Part shown: piece by piece, positions 2,238 to 59,216 of the stretch
Numbering within the stretch: the first letter of the stretch is position 1
Layout of the letters: each line of letters starts with the position of its first letter
Source of the DNA: Planctomycetota bacterium
GTDB taxonomy: Bacteria > Planctomycetota > UBA1135 > UBA2386
Assembly: GCA_046290465.1 (NCBI GenBank)
Contig: JBKAGP010000001.1
Span: forward strand, 1,568,001-1,632,000
Direction: 5' to 3'
DNA: 64,000 bases
The notes under the pieces: model-generated
Seen by the model: the letters and a program-made list of their open reading frames with translations, nothing else
The model's database searches: none
Told to the model about the DNA's origin: nothing
Position numbers and translations under genes: made by a program

Positions 2238-4301
2238 TCAGAACAGCTTCACGGCCGACGGCCCGCCGACGAACGTCTCGGCCAACGTGACGGGATCGAG
2301 CCCGACGACCGCGTGGTGGTAGAGACCCGGCGGCAGCCCGTAGGCGCCGGCCGGCAGCTGGAACGTCGCGGTCGCGCGGCCGCTGCCGTCGGTGAACCCC
2401 AGCGTGTTGCCGTAGGCGGTCGTGTTGAACAGCGTGATCGTCGCGCTGGTGTAGGCGTCGAAGTTGAGCGGGATCGTCAGCGGGCCGAAGGCGGGCAGCA
2501 CCGTGCCGGGATAGCTGCCGCTGGTCGACCCGAGCACCGCGTAGAGCATGTTGGCGTTGGCCGCGCCGGCGTCGATCCGGAACGTGTGGGTGCCGCCGGC
2601 GCCGATCGGGACGAACGACGGCGTCGCGATCAGCGAGCCGCTGTGGCCCTTGACGATCGCGGCACCGGCGCCGCCGTCGATCGCCTGGTAGAACACGAAG
2701 TCGCCGCCGTTGTTGAACCAGTTCGGGCTGCCCGCGGAGCTGCTCCAGTTGCCTGCCGCGGCGATGCCGGCGGTGGCCGTGCCGGTGCCGAGGCTGGTCG
2801 TGTAGGTCTCGGTCTGGTCGCGCGCGACCCGCAGGCCGAGGTCCAGATCGTGGACCAGGAAGAACGCGACCGTCGCGACGCCGTCGCTGGCGGCGACGAC
2901 GCACATCATCTGGCCGCGCGAGTTCAGGTCCGCCGTGACCGTCGCGGATTCGCAGACCCACGGGCCGTTGGCCGACGCCGGGATCGCCGGAATCACCTGC
3001 CCATCGCGCACGACCAGCTGCAGGTTGCCGGGCGTGCCGTGGAACAGCGCGCCGTCGCTCGTCGGGGGCAGCGCGCCGCCGGCCGCGTCGCGCAGGATCG
3101 TGCTGAAGCCGATCGACCCGTCCTCGCCGGTGCTGAGCGAACCGGCGACGATCTCGCCGTACGTCTCGCCGCCCGGCAGGCCGGTCGGGTCGCCTTCCTG
3201 CAGGATCGGAGCCACCGCGCCGATGCCGCCGAAGAACACCACCCGGTCATTGGCGGACGTGATGCCCGGCCCGCTGACCCGCGACGCAAACGCCAGGTTC
3301 GCCGTGTTGGTGAAGCCGTTGCCGCCGGCACCGGGACTGCCGGAGTAGACGACGCCGGCAGCCAGGCCCGGCGCCTGGTCGCCCTTGCGCGCCACCACCG
3401 ACAGGCCGGCACCGGGCTGCCAGATCGCGAGCGCGACATCGTTGCTGCTGGTCACCGTCGGCCCGGCGAGCCGGACCTGCAGCAGGATCTGGCCGCTGTC
3501 GTTGATCTGCGTCAGGAAGGCCAGGTGCGGACCGTAGTGCGGCACGAACACTTCGCCGTTGCCCAGCCCCGCATCGTCGCCCTCCCGGATCACGATCTGC
3601 AGGCCGGATGGCGAACCGGTCAGCACGATCGTGTCGTTCGCGCCGGTGACGTTGCCGGTCAGCGTGCACGGCAGCGTGACGACGCCGCTGCGGTTGATCT
3701 TGTGGTTGGTGCGGTCGATCGCGAGCGGGCCGAACCGCACGCCGCTGGCGAGGCCGGGCACGGGATCGCCCTCGCGGGCGAGCAGCGTGACCATGCCCGG
3801 CGCGCCCCAGAACAGCGCGCTGTCGGCATCGGGTGGCGTCATCGTCGGGTCGATCGGGTCGTAGAGGCGGCTGCCGAAGTAGACCAGCCCGCCGTCCGGT
3901 GAGAGCACCGGATCGTCCTCGAGGCCAGCACCCGGCGACGGACCGTCGTACTGCAGCAGGATGTTGCTCGGCAGGCCGACGATCGCGTGCGGCGAACCCG
4001 ACTGCGCGACCAGCTGCATGTCGTCGGCGAGGTGGCCGAGGAAGAGCGCGTGGTCGTCGGGGCCCGACGGCGTCAGCCGCGCGCGCAGCAACACGCGCCC
4101 GTTCTGGTCGACGACGGGTGTGGACAGCCACTGCCCGACGCCGCCGTAGATCGTCTTGCCCGGAATGCCCGGAGCGGGATCGCCGGCGGCGAGCACGACC
4201 TCTCCGTGCAGGCTGCTGAGGCTCTGGGCGAAGCCGGTGGCGGCAGTGGCGGCGAACGCGACCATCGGGAGGATCGCGGCAAGAGGGCGGGCTCGGAGCA
4301 T
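2238..4301 (-). CDS. secreted repeat protein (NxxGxxAF-like tandem repeats) with C-terminal beta-sandwich
   Basis: Signal peptide MLRARPLAAILPMVAFAATAATGFAQ; repeated L(V/L)AREGDxAPG and INxSGQ motifs. Confidence 0.75.
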   Translation of the reverse strand: MLRARPLAAILPMVAFAATAATGFAQSLSSLHGEVVLAAGDPAPGIPGKTIYGGVGQWLSTPVVDQNGRVLLRARLTPSGPDDHALFLGHLADDMQLVAQSGSPHAIVGLPSNILLQYDGPSPGAGLEDDPVLSPDGGLVYFGSRLYDPIDPTMTPPDADSALFWGAPGMVTLLAREGDPVPGLASGVRFGPLAIDRTNHKINRSGVVTLPCTLTGNVTGANDTIVLTGSPSGLQIVIREGDDAGLGNGEVFVPHYGPHLAFLTQINDSGQILLQVRLAGPTVTSSNDVALAIWQPGAGLSVVARKGDQAPGLAAGVVYSGSPGAGGNGFTNTANLAFASRVSGPGITSANDRVVFFGGIGAVAPILQEGDPTGLPGGETYGEIVAGSLSTGEDGSIGFSTILRDAAGGALPPTSDGALFHGTPGNLQLVVRDGQVIPAIPASANGPWVCESATVTADLNSRGQMMCVVAASDGVATVAFFLVHDLDLGLRVARDQTETYTTSLGTGTATAGIAAAGNWSSSAGSPNWFNNGGDFVFYQAIDGGAGAAIVKGHSGSLIATPSFVPIGAGGTHTFRIDAGAANANMLYAVLGSTSGSYPGTVLPAFGPLTIPLNFDAYTSATITLFNTTAYGNTLGFTDGSGRATATFQLPAGAYGLPPGLYHHAVVGLDPVTLAETFVGGPSAVKLF

Positions 4302-47931: not shown

Positions 47932-48635
47932 GCGCGCACGCTCGCTTCGATGGCAGCTGCCCGATTCGCACGGCGACCGCACCGATTGCAGGATCTCGGC
48001 GTGAGCGTACCACAAGGCAGCGTACTATCCGGTCTCTTGGCGATCTCTACGTGGCTTCGTTCGACCGAGCGATGCAGGACCGCTCCTTCGAGATCTACCA
48101 TCGAGTTCGTCGCCGGCATTCAACCGCTTGCCTCGTCGACTCCGTAGCGACGCGGGAGTAGCAGGCAGGCTGCGCCCGGACAAGCCACATCAGCGATGTC
48201 CGAAGAGCGTCAGGATCAGTGCGAATGGGACCATTCAGTCCGCACACGTGCTGGCCGCGTCACGAAACACCCAAACCGCGAGAAGCGGAGGAGAAGAAGC
48301 CCATGGGAGAGTGCTGTCGCGAGCATTGGCAACGGCCTTGGCACTTCCGCGTGACCGCCCATCAGGCGACCACCGTAGGTGACCCTGCGCGCGACCGATG
48401 GACCTGAACTCGCTCGCTGTCACAGACCGCCCTATGAGAGCCACTCCGGTTCGCCCAAGCGGAGCCACCGCCAGTTCGGCCAAACGGAGCCAGGCCAGTT
48501 CGGCAGAACGGAGCCACCCTGGTTCGGCCAAGCGGAGCCACCTGTGACGGGTTGAGCCGGAAGCGAGTCTGGAACTGGGTGAGCCCCCTGCCACCCGGGA
48601 TCTTCGAGGAATCACTTACCCCCTCGAGGAACCAG

Positions 48636-49150
48636 ATGGGCAGGAGGCTCAGCATGCATCGTCTACAAGATCTCGTCCGACTCCACCGCGAAGGCGTCCC
48701 CGGCCGCACGGCGGCCCGCCTTCTGAAGATGGGGCGCAACACGATCGCCCGCTACACGAAGGCGCTGTCGGCGGCCGGCCTGCTGAGCGGCGACCCGAGA
48801 GACCTACCAGCCATCGAGGAGCTTCGCGCCGCGGTCGACGAACACGCGCCGCCGAGCACGCCGCCGCAGCAGAAGTCATCGATCGAACGATGGCTGCCGA
48901 TCGTCGATGCAAAGTCCGACGAAGGCGTGCCGCCGACGGCGATCTTCGACTTCCTTCGGCTCGAGCACTCGGACTTCGCGGGCAGCCTGTCGGCGATCAA
49001 GCGCCGCTGCGCGGCCCTGCGCCGCGAACGCGGCGTGCAGCCAGGCGAGGTGACGATGCCCGTCGAGACGGCGGTCGGCGACGTCGCGCAAGTCGACTTC
49101 GGCTACGTCGGCAAGCTCTACGACCCCGAGTCGGGCAAGGAAAAGAAGGC
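48636..49150 (+). pseudogene. istA: IS21 transposase IstA, 5' fragment
   Basis: HTH start ...ETAVGDVAQVDFG, then similarity ends. Confidence 0.85.
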
Positions 49151-49521
49151 ACCGCGCGTGTCGCGCTGGCTACTCGGTGCTCTACGTCGCCGCGCACGAG
49201 ATGCTGACCAAGCTGCGCGCGTCGCGAGCCGACGGCAGCTACGACCGATGCCTCGCCAAGTTTGCGAGCCCCGACCTGCTGATCATCGACGATCTCGGGC
49301 TGCGACCGTTGGAGAACGACGAGCCCATCGACCTCTACGAGGTCATCCGGCAACGCTACGAGCGCGGCGCGATGATCGTCACGAGCAACCGTGCGCTCGA
49401 GGAATGGCCGCCGCTCTTCGTCGATGAGCTGCTCGCCAGCGCGGCGATGGACCGCGTGCAGCACCATGCCCACGTCGTCGTCATCGATGGGCGGTCTTTC
49501 CGCCAGCCGCGGAGCGCGTAG
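49150..49521 (+). pseudogene. istB: IS21 ATPase IstB, 3' fragment
   Basis: HRACRAGYSVLY...DLLIIDDLG...IVTSN...AMDRVQHHA; Walker A missing. Confidence 0.85.
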
Positions 49522-49676
49522 TGGCTCCGTTTGGCCGAACTGGGCGTGATTCCTGCCGAACGCGATCAGGCTTCTGTGCCAATCCCGAAACGTCGCCTGT
49601 GCCAGTCCGAATCCGGCTTCGAGAGGTGGCTCCGAATGGCCGAACTGGGGTGGCTCCGATCAGGCGGTCCTTGACA

Positions 49677-50155
49677 CCGGTCTTCTCCGCGGCGATCAGC
49701 TGCGAGCCGCTGCCGCTGAAGGGCTCGTAGACGATGTCGCCCGGCGACGTGTGCTTGCGAATCGGGCGCTCGAACAGCTCCGTGGGCTTCGCGGTTGGGT
49801 GCTCGGCCCCGGTGCTGCGTGCCTTGCCGTCGAAGTCGACCTCCAAAACGGAGTCGTGGTCGTGAACACCGTCGTGCTCCGGCTGGTCGCCCTTGCGCCA
49901 TCCCATCACGCAGGGCTCATGGCGGAAATGCCAGTAGACGAGACCGAACACCGACGCCGGCTTCACCCAGATGATCTGCTGGTGGTCGAGGATGCCGAGC
50001 TCACGCCAGATGCGCTGAAGGTCGCCGCTGCGCTTGTGTGCGTGCCAGCAGTAGATGGCGGCCTTCGGGCCGAGCACGTCGAGCACGTTGGCGAACACCG
50101 CATGGAAGAACGCCTCCGGGTCCTTGATCGACACCCCGTCGTAGCGGTCCCATCG
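49677..50155 (-). pseudogene. N6/N4 DNA methyltransferase fragment (phage/ParB-MTase type)
   Basis: IIWVK, HPTAKP, EPFSGSGS; no DPPY N-terminus; cut by the IS21 right end. Confidence 0.85.
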
Positions 50156-50360
50156 TAGCAGAAGCTGCCGCACGCAGAACAGTGGGCCCAACGTTTGCCA
50201 ACCCGCTGTGAACGAGAGCCCACGTCTCTAAACTCGGCGCAAGCCGTAGCTCCACCTGTTGACAGTGCTCCGAACGACCGAGATCGCAAGCTGGGCCGCG
50301 TACGCGTCAGCTCTCACCGCAGGCACGATTTTGTGCAAACCGCCCCCCGAGGCTGAAACC

Positions 50361-50876
50361 ATGGAGATGATGATCAAGGTCATCGGGCTCGTTGCTGGCA
50401 TCGCAACGGCCGGAGGCACCATCGCGGCCGCCTACTTCGTCCTCTTTCTTGGTAGGCGACAACGCGAAGACACGTGGCAACGTCACCTGTCCGAGATTCA
50501 CCAGCTCTTCTGGGATAAGGACCCCGACAACGCCAAAGTACGAATGTGGATCGCGGCGCCGACGCTCGGCTCACCACTCGGGGCCGAGCTCTACAACGCT
50601 CTTCACGTGAGGAGGCACACGCCGAAGAAGATCAGCGCCGAGGACTACGCTCGAATCGACAAGCTGGATCGGTTCTTGAATGCGTTCGTCAGGGTATTCG
50701 TTTTCATCGAGGAGACTCCTGGGCTCAAGCTGACGTCAGCCCACCTGATGCTGGAGTACTGGGCGGGACGCCTGATGGGGCTCGACGAAGAGGGCAAGTG
50801 CGTCCAAGAAGATCTCAACTGGTACATGCGCGAGTACTTCCCCTCGATCGCAAGAGGGCACAAGTTGCTGACCTAG
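50361..50876 (+). CDS. hypothetical protein with N-terminal TM helix
   Basis: VIGLVAGIATAGGTIAAAYFVLFL followed by a helical domain. Confidence 0.6.
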   Translation: MEMMIKVIGLVAGIATAGGTIAAAYFVLFLGRRQREDTWQRHLSEIHQLFWDKDPDNAKVRMWIAAPTLGSPLGAELYNALHVRRHTPKKISAEDYARIDKLDRFLNAFVRVFVFIEETPGLKLTSAHLMLEYWAGRLMGLDEEGKCVQEDLNWYMREYFPSIARGHKLLT

Positions 50877-50967
50877 CCAACGCCCCCTGCGTGCGGCTGT
50901 CGCATTCGTGGCCAAATGCGACGCGGATCAACTTGATGATCTCGCCAGAACGAGCGTGCATGTGGTC

Positions 50968-51264
50968 ATGCACCTCCAAGACGCCCTCGGGCAGTTCCAA
51001 GTCCAACTCCGCGCCGATGGGCGCTCGGAGCACACCCGCAAGCAGTACCAGCGCCACGTCAGGGCGCTGATCGCCTGGCTCGCCACAACAGCCCACAGCT
51101 CGGAGATCGAGGCTCTTGTCCCGGCCGTCATCGCCGAGTTCCTCGCCAGCGACGCGGCAACCGGCAGCGCGCGCGGAGGAGCCAAAAAGGCGTCGAGCGC
51201 CAACGCGATGCGCACGAGCATCCGCTGCCTCAGCCGCTGGGCGACCGCGACTGGCCGGTTTTGA
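50968..51264 (+). pseudogene. tyrosine recombinase N-terminal (SAM-like) fragment
   Basis: QLRADGRSEHTRKQYQRHV...SSANAMRTSIRC; no catalytic domain. Confidence 0.7.
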
Positions 51265-51300
51265 ACCGTTCCCCGAGGAAGTTGTTGGCGAACCAACGAC

Positions 51301-51333
51301 TGGTAGCGGGGATGGGTGGTGATTTGAGTCGGG
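51301..51333. other. att junction (core + element arm)
   Basis: TGGTAGCGGGGA-TGGGTGGTGATTTGAGTCGGG. Confidence 0.8.
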
Positions 51334-52715: not shown

Positions 52716-52899
52716 CCTTGCTGTTGGCAGCGAGCCCGAAAAGCGGGCAGTCCGGTCATCCTAGCCCAAGAGCGCGAGCTTCACAGGCAGCCCAACCTGT
52801 ACGCGACGATCTCCTGCATGAGAGTCGCGGACCCAACAGTCGGTCCTTGGGAGGCGCCCGGTCCACGTACCTCGACAGCTTTGGCGGACCCAGCTTCGC

Positions 52900-52929
52900 T
52901 AGCGGGGATGGATGGCGACTTGAGTCGGG
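52900..52929. other. second att-like junction
   Basis: 27/30 identical to 51304-51333. Confidence 0.7.
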
Positions 52930-53155
52930 CTCGCTATCGGCGGATAGCATGGACGCCATAACCCATCTCCTGCAAGAGTCTTCCACACACGCGAGACGAT
53001 CCAGCCCAGTTGCGACACAGGACGAAGCGCGGCGAGCCGCCATTCTGGCAGCATATCGGGGACCCGACTGCCAACGCGACACGCTCGGACAGCATCCGCC
53101 GCAGAGCAAGGAGCGGCACACCCGTTGCTTGGACGGCGCCGAAGGAACGGCAGCA

Positions 53156-54175
53156 ATGGAGACAGCAAACGACTACATCGCGGAGATCCTCCGCCAGATC
53201 GAACCCGATTCTGAAGTCCTCGCCGAGGCTCGGACGCGACGGGATCTCGTCGCAGCGAAGGCAATGTCACTTCGCGGGACCCTGCGACAGTACTCCTCCG
53301 GAAGCGTCGCCCACGGAAATGTAACAGCACCCATCAATGATGCAGATGGCGGCATCGTGCTAGACCGGCGCATTCACACCAAACTGGGACCGGAGGGCGA
53401 CAATGAAGGCCCAGAGAAGGTCATCGAGGAGCTGAAGGAACTCGTAGGACCCAAGATTCGGGCCAAGTACTCCAAAGCTCGCATTTCGACATCTCGACGA
53501 GGCCTCCTGGTCACATTTGGCAGCCCCCTTAGCGACCAAGACCCTTCGGTCGATATGATTGTCACGCTCACCCGCAAGAAGGGCGATGGTCTTTGGATTC
53601 CCAATCTAAAATCCAACACGTGGGACGCCTCCCATCCGGAGCAACACACAGATCTATTTACGTCCGGAACCACGACACTTCGCCAACAACGCTCGACGAT
53701 CACCCGACTCGCCAAGGTCTGGAATAAGCAGTTCACCAACCCAGCGCTCTCGTCGTTCAATGTTTCATCCCTGGCCTGGGAACTGATCACAAAGACAAAC
53801 TCCGACACAGCCGAGGCGCTCCAGGAGTTTTTTGCACTGTCCGCCCAGGCAATTGGCCAAAACAACACCAAGGATCCTGCGGGCGTATCCAGTTCCATCC
53901 GCCTGCTGCAAAGCCGGTCCATTGCGGTCAGAAGACTCCAATCAGCTGCACGTTCCCTTGAGAAGGCAATTTCCTCCAAGGATCCCAACGGAATACAAGA
54001 GTCGATGGCAGCCGTCTTCCACCATTACGTTGACCCGCCGGCTTCGAGCAAGGCTGCATGGGCGGCGGCCTTCAGAAACAAAGATAGCTCCGTTGGCGTT
54101 ACGGCTTCAGGCCTCGCAATTGGTACAGGCGAAACGCTGAAGTCCACCAGGTCTTTCGGAGGACCTGCAGAGTGA
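53156..54175 (+). CDS. CD-NTase (cGAS/DncV-like nucleotidyltransferase)
   Basis: YSSGSVAHG...INDADGG (GS + DxD), SVDMIV, SHPEQH, RLAKVWN, DPAG; C-terminal RSFGG-PAE. Confidence 0.85.
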   Translation: METANDYIAEILRQIEPDSEVLAEARTRRDLVAAKAMSLRGTLRQYSSGSVAHGNVTAPINDADGGIVLDRRIHTKLGPEGDNEGPEKVIEELKELVGPKIRAKYSKARISTSRRGLLVTFGSPLSDQDPSVDMIVTLTRKKGDGLWIPNLKSNTWDASHPEQHTDLFTSGTTTLRQQRSTITRLAKVWNKQFTNPALSSFNVSSLAWELITKTNSDTAEALQEFFALSAQAIGQNNTKDPAGVSSSIRLLQSRSIAVRRLQSAARSLEKAISSKDPNGIQESMAAVFHHYVDPPASSKAAWAAAFRNKDSSVGVTASGLAIGTGETLKSTRSFGGPAE

Positions 54176-54615
54176 AGTTTCGCCGGGTCTCGGGACCATG
54201 GTATGGACGCGACAGAGAGCGCATCTCTTTCGAAAGAGGCACTCGCAATTATGATCACATCAGCGCAAGGACCATTGCAAAGGTAGGCAGAGAATACAAG
54301 GTCACAATCTCTGTACCGCACTACCAATCACGCGGCGTCACGATCATGTTCCGCAAGAACTCCCCCGAGACGCCACGCGTGTTCGTTGACGGCAAGAAGG
54401 AAGAATCCCCTCACCGCTACGAGGACGCCACGCTATGCATGTGGCACCCAAAAGATCCTCCCGAGAAGCGCTGGACGCGCTCGGACGGCCTCCTCCACCT
54501 CCTCGGACACATTGAGGCCCACCTATTCAAAGAAGAATGGTGGCGCGAGTCGGGCGAATGGCTCGGCGCGGAAGCACACCACAACGGCGCCGAACGGAAG
54601 GAGATGCACAGTTGA
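54172..54615 (+). CDS. stand-alone E2-like protein of short type II CBASS
   Basis: PRVFV...SPHRY..ATLCMWHP...W...EEWWRESGEWLGAEAHH. Confidence 0.8.
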   Translation: MKFRRVSGPWYGRDRERISFERGTRNYDHISARTIAKVGREYKVTISVPHYQSRGVTIMFRKNSPETPRVFVDGKKEESPHRYEDATLCMWHPKDPPEKRWTRSDGLLHLLGHIEAHLFKEEWWRESGEWLGAEAHHNGAERKEMHS

Positions 54616-55115
54616 CAGACATCCTAGAGTCAAGCATAACTCCGGCGATAATAGCCGGATCCGTTTCACTGATCGTGGCAATCGCAGCCAACCGGAAGTC
54701 ACTACAAGATCGCCAGCGCGCCCTAGTTGCTGAAGCATTCTCGGCGATTACCGAATACCGTGAATACCCCTATATTGTCTATCGGCGCGACAAGCTCAAG
54801 AAGGAAGAAGAACGCACTCGCATTTCGAGCGCTCTAAGCACTCTCCAATCCCGCATCAATAGCCTGCAAGCGCAACTATTCGTCGAGACGCCCTTCATAG
54901 CAGATTCCTACAAGAGCTTAGTCGCCGCCACGCGCAAGATCGCTGGCCCCGCCATCAAAATGGCGTGGGATTCCGAGCCTGCTGGATGTGACGCCGAAGT
55001 GAGCACATCAGCCTACGACACCACACAACTAGAGAAGCCGGCACAGCGGTTCCTAAAACAAGCGCGTCGAAACTTCGGGTGGGTTCCAAACTGGGTCTAC
55101 TTCTTGTGTGATTGA
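54612..55115 (+). CDS. putative CBASS effector, single N-terminal TM
   Basis: TTG start overlapping the E2 stop, GGAAGGAG RBS; IIAGSVSLIVAIAA then amphipathic helices. Confidence 0.6.
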   Translation: MTDILESSITPAIIAGSVSLIVAIAANRKSLQDRQRALVAEAFSAITEYREYPYIVYRRDKLKKEEERTRISSALSTLQSRINSLQAQLFVETPFIADSYKSLVAATRKIAGPAIKMAWDSEPAGCDAEVSTSAYDTTQLEKPAQRFLKQARRNFGWVPNWVYFLCD

Positions 55116-55135
55116 TCCTCGAACGTGCGGGGAGC

Positions 55136-55224
55136 ACCCCGCAGCTCCGTCGCCGTCAGCGTCGGTCACACCCGAAGGGAGCGGAGCGGATTGACCGATG
55201 CTGACGGCGATGGAGCTGTGGGGT
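55136..55224 (+). other. 33-bp inverted repeat / putative RNA hairpin
   Basis: Arms 55136-55168 and 55192-55224; the three non-WC pairs are all G-U on the + strand. Confidence 0.7.
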
Positions 55225-55292
55225 CCCCCGTAGCTCTTGAGCCGGAGGCCGAGGGAGCTTGACAGCTCGCCTACCACCACGATCCTCGACGC

Positions 55293-56054
55293 GTGCAGGA
55301 CGAATCGCGCGTAGCCGCCTGGGGCCGGGGTCGAGACGAGGAGCTTGTCCAACTGGCACTCGCTGTCTTCAGCAGCGCCGACGAGACGATCGCCATCTTC
55401 GGCGGGGAACCGGCCCCATCGACGCCACCTGACGGGTCGCACCTCTCGTTCTACCGCGACCACCGGCGCCTCATGCGCCTCATGAGTCAGATGGCAGAAC
55501 CTCCGCACAAGCCGCAGGACAAGACGGACGCCGTCCGCTTCCTGATCGAGATCTGGATGCGCTGCGTCTACGCCTACCTGATCACCCCCGGAATGCTCCT
55601 CCGTGCCGCGCGCCAGGGCGAACCAAAGGCGCTGGATGATCTGCTTCGCCTCGACAAGGCGGCCATCTGCGAGCCACGAGTTGCCAAGCAACTCGTCGCC
55701 ATCTTCGACCGCGGGCGACCAGCTCTCAAGAAGCGCATCGCCGCAGCTCTGAAGGGCAGACCGACGCTCCCGCCACGCAGGACGCTGAAAGCTCGGATGG
55801 CAGGCCTGGTCATCGCGATCATCAACGAGGACGAGAGGTTCGTTTCTCGCGGTGTCGAGGCACCGACGCCGAGCGAGTTGCGCGACCTCTTCGACGCCAT
55901 CGCCCAGGACGCGGACCAGCAGCAGCCATGCGATAGCGACCTCCCTGAAGGTGACGACGCGTGGCGAAAGGCAGTTCAGCGAGCTCGCTCCGAACTGCGC
56001 CCGTTCGTGCGCCTCGCGATCGACCACCCGCTCCGGACAAGAGTCGCACCGTAG
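55293..56054 (+). CDS. hypothetical protein of the element
   Basis: 253-aa ORF with GC3 bias, upstream of the rep gene. Confidence 0.6.
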   Translation: MQDESRVAAWGRGRDEELVQLALAVFSSADETIAIFGGEPAPSTPPDGSHLSFYRDHRRLMRLMSQMAEPPHKPQDKTDAVRFLIEIWMRCVYAYLITPGMLLRAARQGEPKALDDLLRLDKAAICEPRVAKQLVAIFDRGRPALKKRIAAALKGRPTLPPRRTLKARMAGLVIAIINEDERFVSRGVEAPTPSELRDLFDAIAQDADQQQPCDSDLPEGDDAWRKAVQRARSELRPFVRLAIDHPLRTRVAP

Positions 56055-56382: not shown

Positions 56383-57437
56383 ATGATCGCCACAGAACGG
56401 GGCGACGGCGGATTCGAGGATCTCGGGCTCACCCAGATCCGCATCTCGCTCGACGCGCTCACGGTTTCGCTCACCGAGTCCGAGGTCAGCGAGATGTTCG
56501 GCAAGATGATCGAGGCCGTCAGACGAACGGGATGCAACACCCTGCCAACGATGGGGCGGCCCTGGCGCGACTTCCGCAAGACGCAGCGCTACGGGCTCTC
56601 GACGCTCAACGAAGGCGCGCAGTGGTACCGCAAGTACGATCCGCAGCAGCTCGCGCCCACCCTCGGCAGCGACTACGAGTCCTGGGAGGTCATGGGCCCC
56701 GCAGCGCGCATCCTCGCCGACGTGCTGAAGTCGGCGCCCGTGCATGTCGGGCGCGCTTCACGCCTCGACGTCGCATTCGACTTCGCGTGCGAACCTGACC
56801 TGTGGCCCGCCGCAATCGAGGACGCGATCTCCTTCCACTGCGAGCACCACGGCTTCCACATCCACTACCAGGGCGAACGGGAGAAGCGCACCGTCTACGT
56901 CGGCTCGCCCAAGTCGGAGCGGCGCGTTCGCATCTACCGGCACGACCTCGCGCACGGTGGCGGCCTCCCGATCCTGCGCGTGGAGGTAGAACTCCGGCGC
57001 AAACACGCGGCCGAAGCCTGGAGACGTTGGTGGCCGGGCGGCGGACCAGCCATCGGCCTCTGCGCGGGTCACATCGAGCAGATGACCGGACGCGCCGTCT
57101 TCGTGGACGAACTCACCTACCCCGCGCCCGCCCCTGGCCGCGACGTCGATCTGATCGAGACCTCGGCACACGGCACCACCCAGTACGGAGGCGCCTTCGA
57201 GGCCCTTCTCCGCGCGGGCGTCGATCTGACCGCCCTCGTCCGCGACGTGCGCGAGCTGCAGCTCTCGGCGAGCGGAAAGCGGGTCCGTGAGCACAAGATG
57301 CGGCGCCTGCTCGCATCCGTTCGCGGCCTCACGCCCGAGCAGATCGCCTCAGCGATCCTGGGCTCGATCCGCGCGCGCATCCGCCAGCGCTTGCCATCCA
57401 ATCCGACCGGACCTAGCGTCCGGCCCGGAGACCCTGC

Positions 57438-57441
<4 letters not shown>
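56383..57441 (+). CDS. Rep_trans (replication initiation factor) / MOBT relaxase
   Basis: SRLDVAFD, TVYVGSPKSERRVRIY, RVEVEL motifs. Confidence 0.85.

Positions 57442-59216
<1,775 letters not shown>

Follow-up and report, generated by a model that had tools for sequence, protein, structure and literature searches.

What does the small membrane protein do that is encoded last in a three-gene cyclic-oligonucleotide-based antiphage signalling system (CBASS) operon of a planctomycete, and is it of a kind already known? The question is raised by a 64,000-nucleotide stretch of a Planctomycetota genome (the window; contig JBKAGP010000001.1 of assembly GCA_046290465.1, positions 1,568,001 to 1,632,000), to which all coordinates below refer. 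A first-pass annotation, made from the letters alone, had described the interval 53156-55115 as a short type II CBASS with a cleavable Gly-Gly tail on its cyclase and an unrecognised effector with one transmembrane (TM) helix. Our analysis indicates that the operon is very probably an E2-CBASS with an effector of the 1TM class, and that it is probably an intact E2-only antiphage cassette whose 1TM membrane effector is gated by a nucleotide.

The ORF listing and translation showed that the interval is filled exactly by three open reading frames (ORFs), all on the plus strand. The first (53156-54175) starts with ATG and encodes a CD-NTase (nucleotidyltransferase of the cGAS/DncV-like kind) of 339 aa, the CBASS cyclase. 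The second (54172-54615) starts with GTG and encodes an E2-like regulator of 147 aa, and the third (54612-55115) encodes the 167-aa effector from a TTG codon that overlaps the E2 stop. Consecutive genes share 4 nt, GTGA at the cyclase/E2 junction (54172-54175) and TTGA at the E2/effector junction (54612-54615). A purine-rich, Shine-Dalgarno-like run lies 8-9 nt 5′ of every one of the three starts: GAAGGA (53141-53146) before the cyclase, GGAGGA (54158-54163) before the E2, and GGAAGGAG (54596-54603) before the effector, where AAGGAG stands 8 nt from the TTG. The GC content is 0.55-0.58 over 53250-55250, against 0.64-0.70 on either flank, so the three genes are indeed coupled and AT-richer, as had been stated. 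A promoter and terminator scan returned no sigma-70-like promoter and no plus-strand terminator, which is uninformative for a high-GC genome.

Profile searches identified the first two genes. The cyclase matched the PADLOC Cyclase model PDLC00777 over residues 1-337 (E 2.2e-115) and the Pfam family SMODS above its family cut-off (E 5.4e-07), with an NCBIfam match below cut-off only; it is the sole SMODS match of the 6.59-Mb genome. The E2 matched the PADLOC E2 model PDLC00867 (E 6.7e-42), whereas the match to the PADLOC E1-E2 model was confined to residues 31-109 (1.5e-4). No Pfam family scored above cut-off for the E2, and there was no match to it in PHROGs. The flanking ORFs gave no match to ThiF, JAB or any other PADLOC model at E <= 0.01, save for a stray PD-T4-6 (0.005), and the Prok-JAB and ThiF matches of the genome lie at 0.075, 6.44, 0.84 and 0.27 Mb, far from the operon at 1.621-1.623 Mb. 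Because of these PADLOC identities and the absence of E1 and JAB genes near the operon, it is, to judge by gene content, an E2-only (type II short) CBASS with a stand-alone E2. In this the first-pass annotation was right.

The third protein matched two PADLOC models for the CBASS effector type '1TM', PDLC00666 (8.8e-22) and PDLC00665 (8.1e-15), and both models matched all 68 members of the aligned family. This alignment comprised the query and 67 of 150 listed phmmer matches, near-full-length proteins of 159-231 aa; fragments were excluded, as were P0013 (382 aa), P0014 (319), P0040 (377) and P0144 (1125). The only other PADLOC model at E <= 1 was a stray Cas11e (0.014), and there was no patatin, TIR, NucC, SAVED, Cap14 or Cap15 match. 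The protein had been thought unlike patatin, SAVED, Cap15, TIR and NucC effectors, and the PADLOC search agrees; the suggestion built on this, of a possibly new effector class to be checked with PADLOC and Foldseek, has to be given up, since PADLOC assigns the protein to a known one. A figure legend (bioRxiv 10.1101/2022.04.27.489752) traces the type '1TM' to the classification of Millman et al. 2020; the type is also named among the CBASS membrane effectors (PMC12480259) and is accepted as a CBASS effector by DefenseFinder (PMC9090908). We found no structure, ligand or phenotype of any 1TM effector in the literature searched, which left subscription journals mostly outside. The class is already catalogued, and it is defined by sequence clusters and TM count only.

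General family databases had nothing to add. No Pfam family above cut-off, no NCBIfam family and no PHROGs match were found for the effector, and a Pfam scan of the 68 family members gave no family matching more than one member and no match to Pfam 4HB. A link to KilB was considered and rejected: it came from a protein-atlas cluster in which 55% of the members carry KilB (score 0.91), was not confirmed by the Pfam scan, and the other clusters were unnamed.

The membrane topology of the effector is clear from its composition. TM segments were called with a Kyte-Doolittle hydropathy rule, a 19-mer window with a threshold of 1.6. The best 19-mer starts at residue 8 and scores 2.03, placing a single TM helix at residues ~8-27 (54633-54692, plus strand), and there is no second segment; the first-pass call of a single-TM protein is borne out. 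The same holds for the family: one segment reaches the threshold in 65 of the 68 members, and in no member is there a second. Lys and Arg are distributed very unevenly around this segment, with a mean of 0.26 in the 15 residues before it and 4.78 in the 15 after it, and the C-terminal side is the richer one in 68/68 members. By the positive-inside rule, this bias places the N-terminus of the effector outside and the remainder of the protein in the cytoplasm, the compartment in which the signal is produced.

The same pattern bears on the start codon. Homologues align from effector residues 2-8. An alternative ATG upstream, at 54537, would add an Arg-rich N-terminus, and the GTG start used in the public gene call (P0004, 146 aa), at V22 and 21 codons late, loses most of the TM helix (54612-54677). 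Because the first alternative adds Arg before the TM segment and the second deletes the helix, the arrangement of Lys and Arg supports the TTG start at 54612.

AlphaFold2 (AF2), run with the 68-row alignment, gave an effector model with a predicted local distance difference test score (pLDDT) of 94.7 and a predicted template modelling score of 0.85. Its helices span residues 2-50, 61-92, 94-120 and 138-155, the first being the TM segment continued as the first helix of a bundle. The part beyond the membrane, residues ~28-155 (54693-55076, plus strand), is thus predicted to be a cytoplasmic four-helix bundle, and from the model and its conservation we propose it as the nucleotide-sensing domain. 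Three residues are invariant in the alignment, R58, G112 and W119, and a further ten are at least 90% conserved (R34, R36, A42, Y49, E51, R59, R68, Q79, Y100 and L103). At least 80% of the members have a basic residue, Arg and not Lys, at positions 34, 36, 57, 58, 59, 68 and 108, and at least 80% an aromatic one at positions 39, 49, 52, 54, 100, 119 and 147. Arg and aromatic residues are the means by which proteins hold phosphates and bases. Judging by the helix boundaries, the tip of the bundle farthest from the membrane would carry Y49, E51, Y54, R57-59, G112 and W119, while R34, R36, Q79, E92 and Y100 would be close to the membrane.

An exhaustive phmmer search of 1.84 billion representatives found 389 effector relatives at E <= 0.001, 130 of them at E <= 1e-10; a word-indexed homologue search returned only the operon's own effector. 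Several family members (P0013, P0014, P0040, P0047, P0057 and P0129) are 303-382 aa long, with the part that matches the 1TM type confined to the first ~180 residues; they may be C-terminal fusions or over-long gene calls. The family is rare among relatives of the source organism, being present in 2 of 339 genomes of its class, including this one, and in 1 of 401 in a sample of its phylum. The second positive genome of the class (G005) has cyclase, E2 and 1TM genes in the same order.

Gene neighbourhoods were collected from genomes, metagenomes and plasmids with the peptide pattern YRE[FY][PIA][YF][IV]V[RL]R, taken from a 15-row alignment, and the sample is therefore biased to carriers of that pattern; more distant 1TM proteins may have other contexts. 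Species-representative genomes yielded 16 loci, mostly in metagenome-assembled genomes of Actinomycetota (Gaiellaceae, Acidimicrobiia, Thermoleophilia, Solirubrobacteraceae and Aeromicrobium), with one labelled Chloroflexia. The E2 gene lies directly upstream of the 1TM gene in 16/16 and the cyclase gene is present in 15/16, the miss being a contig end. The metagenome scan gave 56 loci. Of these, 53 extend 300 nt or more upstream, and 51 of them have the E2; 46 extend 700 nt or more, and 43 of them have the cyclase. In one exception (L040) a transposase lies upstream and the effector is truncated; in another (L055) a recombinase gene stands in place of the cyclase and half of the E2; in a third (L068) the effector is intact and nothing was recognised across 790 nt upstream. 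None of the other genes flanking the operon in the window recurs next to the cassette in related loci, apart from one weak recombinase match. Cyclase, E2 and 1TM genes thus form a near-fixed cassette, which we take to be one functional unit.

The cassette also occurs on plasmids. Eight plasmid records of cultured actinomycetes contain 1TM relatives, and the trio was present in all three inspected (Streptomyces longwoodensis, Rhodococcus sp. WAY2 and Sinomonas atrocyanea), where RefSeq annotates its products as hypothetical protein. In the Sinomonas plasmid pSA01 (L077, 3195-3851) the E2 is missing from the gene table, which has a hypothetical ORF on the minus strand (3477-3755) in its place; the E2 profile matches the plus strand there with E 4.4e-29. 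The PLSDB gene table is incomplete by design. A gene for an ImmA/IrrE-family metallopeptidase precedes the cassette in S. longwoodensis (L075, 1139-2179) and S. atrocyanea (L077, 406-2197), and the Sinomonas record also has a helix-turn-helix (HTH) regulator before it. This arrangement resembles that of the CapP/CapH regulators, to which these genes may correspond; no ImmA/IrrE or HTH regulator genes were found at the operon in the window. No 1TM relatives were found in viral contigs. At ten loci (L005, L006, L010, L015, L017, L025, L048, L049, L064 and L072) the match to the cyclase or the E2 changes frame or is broken by an in-frame stop; the E2 of L010 is one such interrupted match, and the cause could be decay or assembly error.

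What controls the cyclase can be approached through its C-terminus, which reads KSTRSFGGPAE, as the first-pass reading RSFGG-PAE had it. The motif K329-S-T-R-S-F-G335 (54140-54160, plus strand) is the predicted site of E2 recognition and conjugation, T331, R332 and G335 being invariant in 11/11 aligned homologues. After G335 there is no conservation, and the variable tail G336-P-A-E339 (54161-54172, plus strand) is predicted to be removed by the E2, in line with G406 and E407 of the cyclase SmCdnG of Serratia marcescens. For a wider survey 74 loci were scanned; in 44 the motif could be recognised at the 3′ end of the cyclase gene, and these comprised 35 different sequences. Every one of the 35 fits K/R-x-[TP]-R-[SAGT]-[FYHW]-G, in short K-x-T-R-[SAT]-[FYW]-G, and beyond the Gly come 1-11 residues without conservation (3-7 in 32/35). 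Next to the invariant Gly stands a second Gly in 11 of the 35, an Asp in 8 and a Ser in 4. What is conserved is thus one Gly (G335 in this cyclase) in the context TR-x-aromatic-G, with the second Gly optional. An invariant Gly followed by an unconserved tail of variable length is expected where the tail is cut off and the Gly used for conjugation. The cleavable tail of the first-pass annotation therefore stands in part: a conserved Gly and a dispensable-looking tail are there, but the pair of Gly residues is not the conserved feature. As the invariant Gly is G335, the predicted cut would fall after it and take off GPAE, not PAE.

The E2 retains the residues that such a reaction would need. Its motif SPH81RYEDATLC89MW, in the stretch SPHRYEDATLCMW, contains the His and Cys noted earlier, and both are invariant, together with R82, L88, W91, H117 and the tail residue H137, among the residues identical in 24/24 aligned homologues. 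A Lys in the C-terminal tail (K143 here) was counted by eye in 10 of 12 sequences. By their position in the motif, H81 and C89 would correspond to H87 and C101 of the S. marcescens enzyme, SmE2, and the His and Lys of the tail would parallel its H152 and K159. Sequence searches did not connect the two proteins: phmmer against solved structures found nothing related to the E2, SmE2 included, and the E2 profile found only a eukaryotic Ubc (2h2y, E = 1), aligned at the His/Cys motif.

The S. marcescens system is the closest studied relative in its logic. There the C-terminal Gly of SmCdnG, G406, is followed by a dispensable E407, and removal of the tail has been shown (bioRxiv 10.1101/2022.05.25.493364), as has control of cyclase activity through the covalent link to SmE2; residues of SmE2 needed for defence include H87, C101, H152 and the tail K151-R162 with K159 (bioRxiv 10.1101/2022.05.25.493364; PMC12948482). 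The operon in the window shares with it the order of cyclase and stand-alone E2, the lack of E1 and JAB, a membrane-bound effector, a C-terminal Gly with a dispensable tail on the cyclase, and an E2 with His and Cys plus a His and Lys in its tail. It differs in the length of the cyclase (339 aa, against 407 in SmCdnG), in having no exonuclease gene, and in its effector, one TM helix and a helical bundle in place of 2TM-SAVED. The CBASS of Mycobacterium abscessus is an E1E2/patatin system (PMC12359967) and is not relevant here.

In the cyclase, the active-site residues G49-S50, D62-A-D64 and D133 are intact, and are invariant in 11/11 aligned homologues. The AF2 model had a pLDDT of 80.9, with a well-defined CD-NTase core (80-95), and matched CD-NTase folds with Foldseek at a probability of 1.00. 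The top neighbour was CdnD of Pseudomonas aeruginosa (6p82, E 5.9e-13, 20% identity), followed by Deinococcus DwCdnB (2.1e-11) and Escherichia coli EcCdnC (3.5e-10). The clade-G structures of E2-CBASS ranked lower, BdCdnG (7ljn) at 8.4e-09 and SmCdnG (8hsb) at 1.4e-08, rank 32. In a phmmer search of solved-structure sequences at E <= 0.01 the cyclase matched PaCdnD entries alone. On the model, the enzyme resembles those of clades D, B and C more than CdnG, and probably belongs to the non-clade-G minority; clade G accounts for 73.65% of E2-CBASS cyclases (PMC12948482) and is typical of them, not defining. Residues 70-88 of the model (53363-53419), between a strand (63-69) and a helix (87-104), have no regular secondary structure and hold the invariant residues L77-G78-P79 and P86. 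According to a 2026 preprint (PMC12991175), prohead proteases of phages cleave cyclases of clades A, D and G in surface loops and so switch the enzymes on; residues 70-88 might occupy the corresponding position.

From these elements we propose the following pathway. By analogy with S. marcescens, the E2 would use C89 and H81 to recognise the cyclase C-terminus and would trim its tail after G335. It would then form a covalent bond with the cyclase, first by way of the Cys and subsequently of a Lys in its own tail, and so control cyclase activity. On phage infection the cyclase, with its GS, DxD and D residues intact, would synthesise a cyclic oligonucleotide. The 1TM protein would be the effector, with one N-terminal helix in the membrane and its four-helix bundle exposed to the cytoplasm, and the Arg/aromatic surface of the bundle would bind the nucleotide. 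Binding would be relayed along the continuous TM-stalk helix, causing the effector to cluster or rearrange and the inner membrane to be breached, and the cell would be killed or arrested ahead of phage maturation. We infer nucleotide binding, relay and membrane damage because only these three genes travel together, and from the topology, the conservation and precedent; cleavage at G335 and oligomerisation of the effector are likewise proposed steps. That the helical bundle is itself the nucleotide receptor has, in our estimate, an even chance of being correct. To a fuller version we give somewhat less than that: the bundle would be an undescribed type of cyclic-oligonucleotide receptor, resembling a chemoreceptor turned inside out, in which a ligand held by Arg and aromatic residues signals through one helix into the membrane, which is opened or broken as a result.

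Precedents for a nucleotide-gated membrane protein come from two directions. The named CBASS membrane effectors are Cap13 (TM-STING), Cap14 (2TM-SAVED), Cap15 (2TM-barrel) and Cap16 (TM-NUDIX) (PMC10419184, PMC12421889); among them, Cap14 and Cap15 serve as the precedents for gating by a cyclic nucleotide. The proposed logic is shared with them, a membrane protein gated by a nucleotide whose oligomerisation breaks the inner membrane; the effector here differs in its single TM helix and all-helical sensor, with no barrel, SAVED, STING or NUDIX domain. With the catalogued 1TM type it agrees in the profile match to PDLC00666 and PDLC00665, the one TM helix and the neighbouring CD-NTase, and nothing speaks against membership. 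The best functional analogy, by description alone, is with Csx23, a protein of type III CRISPR systems in which an N-terminal TM domain is joined to a small cytoplasmic domain of novel fold that binds cA4 and perturbs the TM domain (PMC11014256). Csx23 likewise combines a helical TM domain with a small cytoplasmic domain, but belongs to another immune system and answers a Cas10 signal. It was absent from the best 50 rows of the structural-aligner search with the effector, which excludes nothing.

That search, made with an exhaustive structural aligner, placed the effector closest to the sensor bundles of bacterial receptors: HK9 (3va9, Z 10.2), Vc1313-LBD (8bsa, 9.9) and TorS (3i9w, 9.4), followed by PcaY (6s18), Tar (1lih), Tsr (2d4u) and NarX (3ezh). 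These share with it a TM helix that runs into the first helix of the bundle and an up-down-up-down course over ~130 residues; the alignments covered 108-146 residues with Z 7.1-10.2 and rmsd 3.2-5.2 Å. They differ in being periplasmic and in having a second TM helix, whereas the effector's bundle is cytoplasmic and the protein ends after it. Identities were 6-14%, with no sequence similarity.

Several observations weigh against the proposed pathway or against parts of it. The Z scores of these sensor bundles, at most 10.2, fall short of the level (~13) from which a match between helical bundles deserves trust, and Foldseek found nothing for the effector model at E <= 0.001 in PDB or BFVD. No known nucleotide-sensor domain (SAVED, STING, CARF, Cap15 barrel or NucC) was detected in the effector sequence. 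At position 57, Arg in 90% of the 68 members, this effector has Tyr (54780-54782), changing VRRR to VYRR. The E2 is too distant from SmE2 for sequence search, so the residue equivalences given above rest on the position of the motif. In SmCdnG an extra C-terminal helix and three-stranded sheet recruit SmE2 (PMC12948482). The corresponding part of the cyclase here is weakly modelled: from an 11-sequence alignment AF2 gave a helix at 299-307 and two short strands (313-316 and 319-322), with pLDDT <50 for 297-306 and 309-339. Because the cyclase is nearer to CdnD, CdnB and CdnC than to CdnG, details of the S. marcescens model may fail to apply here. Finally, the defence function of this operon is read from its genes. 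A profile of the effector family against PDB sequences gave chance-level rows only (Spo0A at 0.007, and keratin). A prediction of a four-copy effector complex, made without controls, scored 0.03 against a mark of 0.42 and counts neither way.

The main rival, which we regard as improbable, is that the 1TM protein anchors the cyclase and E2 to the membrane, acts as their scaffold or senses infection for them, and that another factor, possibly of the host, does the killing. It would account for the lack of a recognised nucleotide-binding domain, and a four-helix bundle placed after a TM helix is as a rule a sensor; strict co-occurrence with this E2/cyclase pair would also suit a physical partner. 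However, no fourth gene travels with the trio and a CBASS needs an effector, catalogues drawn from thousands of operons put the 1TM family in the effector slot, and the bundle presents its conserved Arg/aromatic set to the cytoplasm.

In a second alternative the E2 attaches the cyclase to the 1TM protein as its conjugation substrate, and the cyclase is thereby held at the membrane. E2-CBASS enzymes do form isopeptide links to Lys (bioRxiv 10.1101/2022.05.25.493364), and the 1TM gene always comes after the E2 gene. However, Lys exceeds 15% in no column of the 68-member alignment and the conserved basic residues are all Arg; in S. marcescens the acceptor Lys residues are on the E2 and the cyclase (bioRxiv 10.1101/2022.05.25.493364; PMC12948482). 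Given that no Lys is conserved, this explanation is very unlikely. We attach an equally small weight to the idea that the cassette is silent, horizontally acquired cargo without function in its host. In its favour, the cassette has a higher AT content than the DNA around it, the element that bears it contains insertion-sequence and recombinase debris, and the family is rare in the lineage by the counts given above for the class and phylum. Against this, the three frames are open, all conserved catalytic residues are intact, and the coupled starts have good ribosome-binding sites. That the third gene founds an effector class absent from the defence catalogues, as the lack of a Pfam, NCBIfam or PHROG family and the 'hypothetical protein' labels of its plasmid homologues might suggest, is hardly credible when the PADLOC 1TM models recognise it and its relatives and DefenseFinder names the type.

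What is new here is the near-fixed trio, the topology and fold of the effector, the single-Gly tail motif, and a cyclase that resembles the clade D, B and C enzymes more than CdnG. Membrane proteins are reportedly the most abundant class of CBASS effectors, at >40% of the total (PMC12480259), and the mechanistic work that we found in the literature searched covers 2TM types only. The operon and its relatives offer a compact way into the 1TM type, since the cassette is fixed at three genes, the fold is modelled with confidence, the topology is clear and the residues of interest are few; copies are also found on plasmids of cultured, non-pathogenic actinomycetes. The E2-only regulatory logic would extend to cyclases outside clade G, with a tail motif of their own, TR-x-aromatic-G. 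Were the bundle the receptor, the protein would be the smallest known CBASS effector, and the receptor would occur almost only with a cyclase/E2 pair outside clade G, one with a tail motif unlike that of the studied model. Two points concern annotation: the public effector call starts too late, at the cost of the TM helix, and the plasmid homologues all bear the label 'hypothetical'.

The surroundings of the operon look like those of a mobile element. Downstream, a 253-aa ORF (55293-56054) with no Pfam or PADLOC match, and no counterpart beside the cassette in other loci, separates the effector from a Rep_trans-like replication initiator (56383-57441, plus strand; Pfam PF02486, E 9.1e-06, 25.9 bits against a 29.6-bit cut-off). 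A gene for a large serine recombinase follows (57438-59183, plus strand; Pfam Resolvase 3e-23, Recombinase 9.1e-20, Zn_ribbon_recom 2.6e-16), and ARAGORN placed a tRNA-Met (CAT) gene at 59140-59216 (minus strand), the probable integration site. Upstream of the operon, 52881-52929 is a 49-nt direct repeat of 51285-51333 with 78% identity. On the minus strand it resembles a tRNA 3′ end (...TCCCCGCTA...); in reverse complement the end of the repeat looks like the acceptor arm of a tRNA (...CCCATCCCCGCTACCA / ...GCTAGCG), and the repeat has the core CCCCGCTA in common with the 3′ end of the tRNA-Met. The paired repeats look like stacked integration relics, and the one at 52881-52929 is probably the left border of a ~6.3-kb element that bears the operon. 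Low GC content and rarity in related genomes fit the view that a small integrative element beside tRNA-Met carries the cassette as its cargo.

Two minus-strand ORFs without a family sit between the repeat copies. Further upstream, 48552-51264 contains mobile-element debris: a C-terminal fragment of IstB_IS21 (49177-49521; Pfam 3.8e-33), a partial N6_N4 DNA methylase (49481-50191, minus strand), the N-terminal SAM-like domain of a tyrosine recombinase on its own (50908-51264), and an ORF that encodes only an HTH domain.

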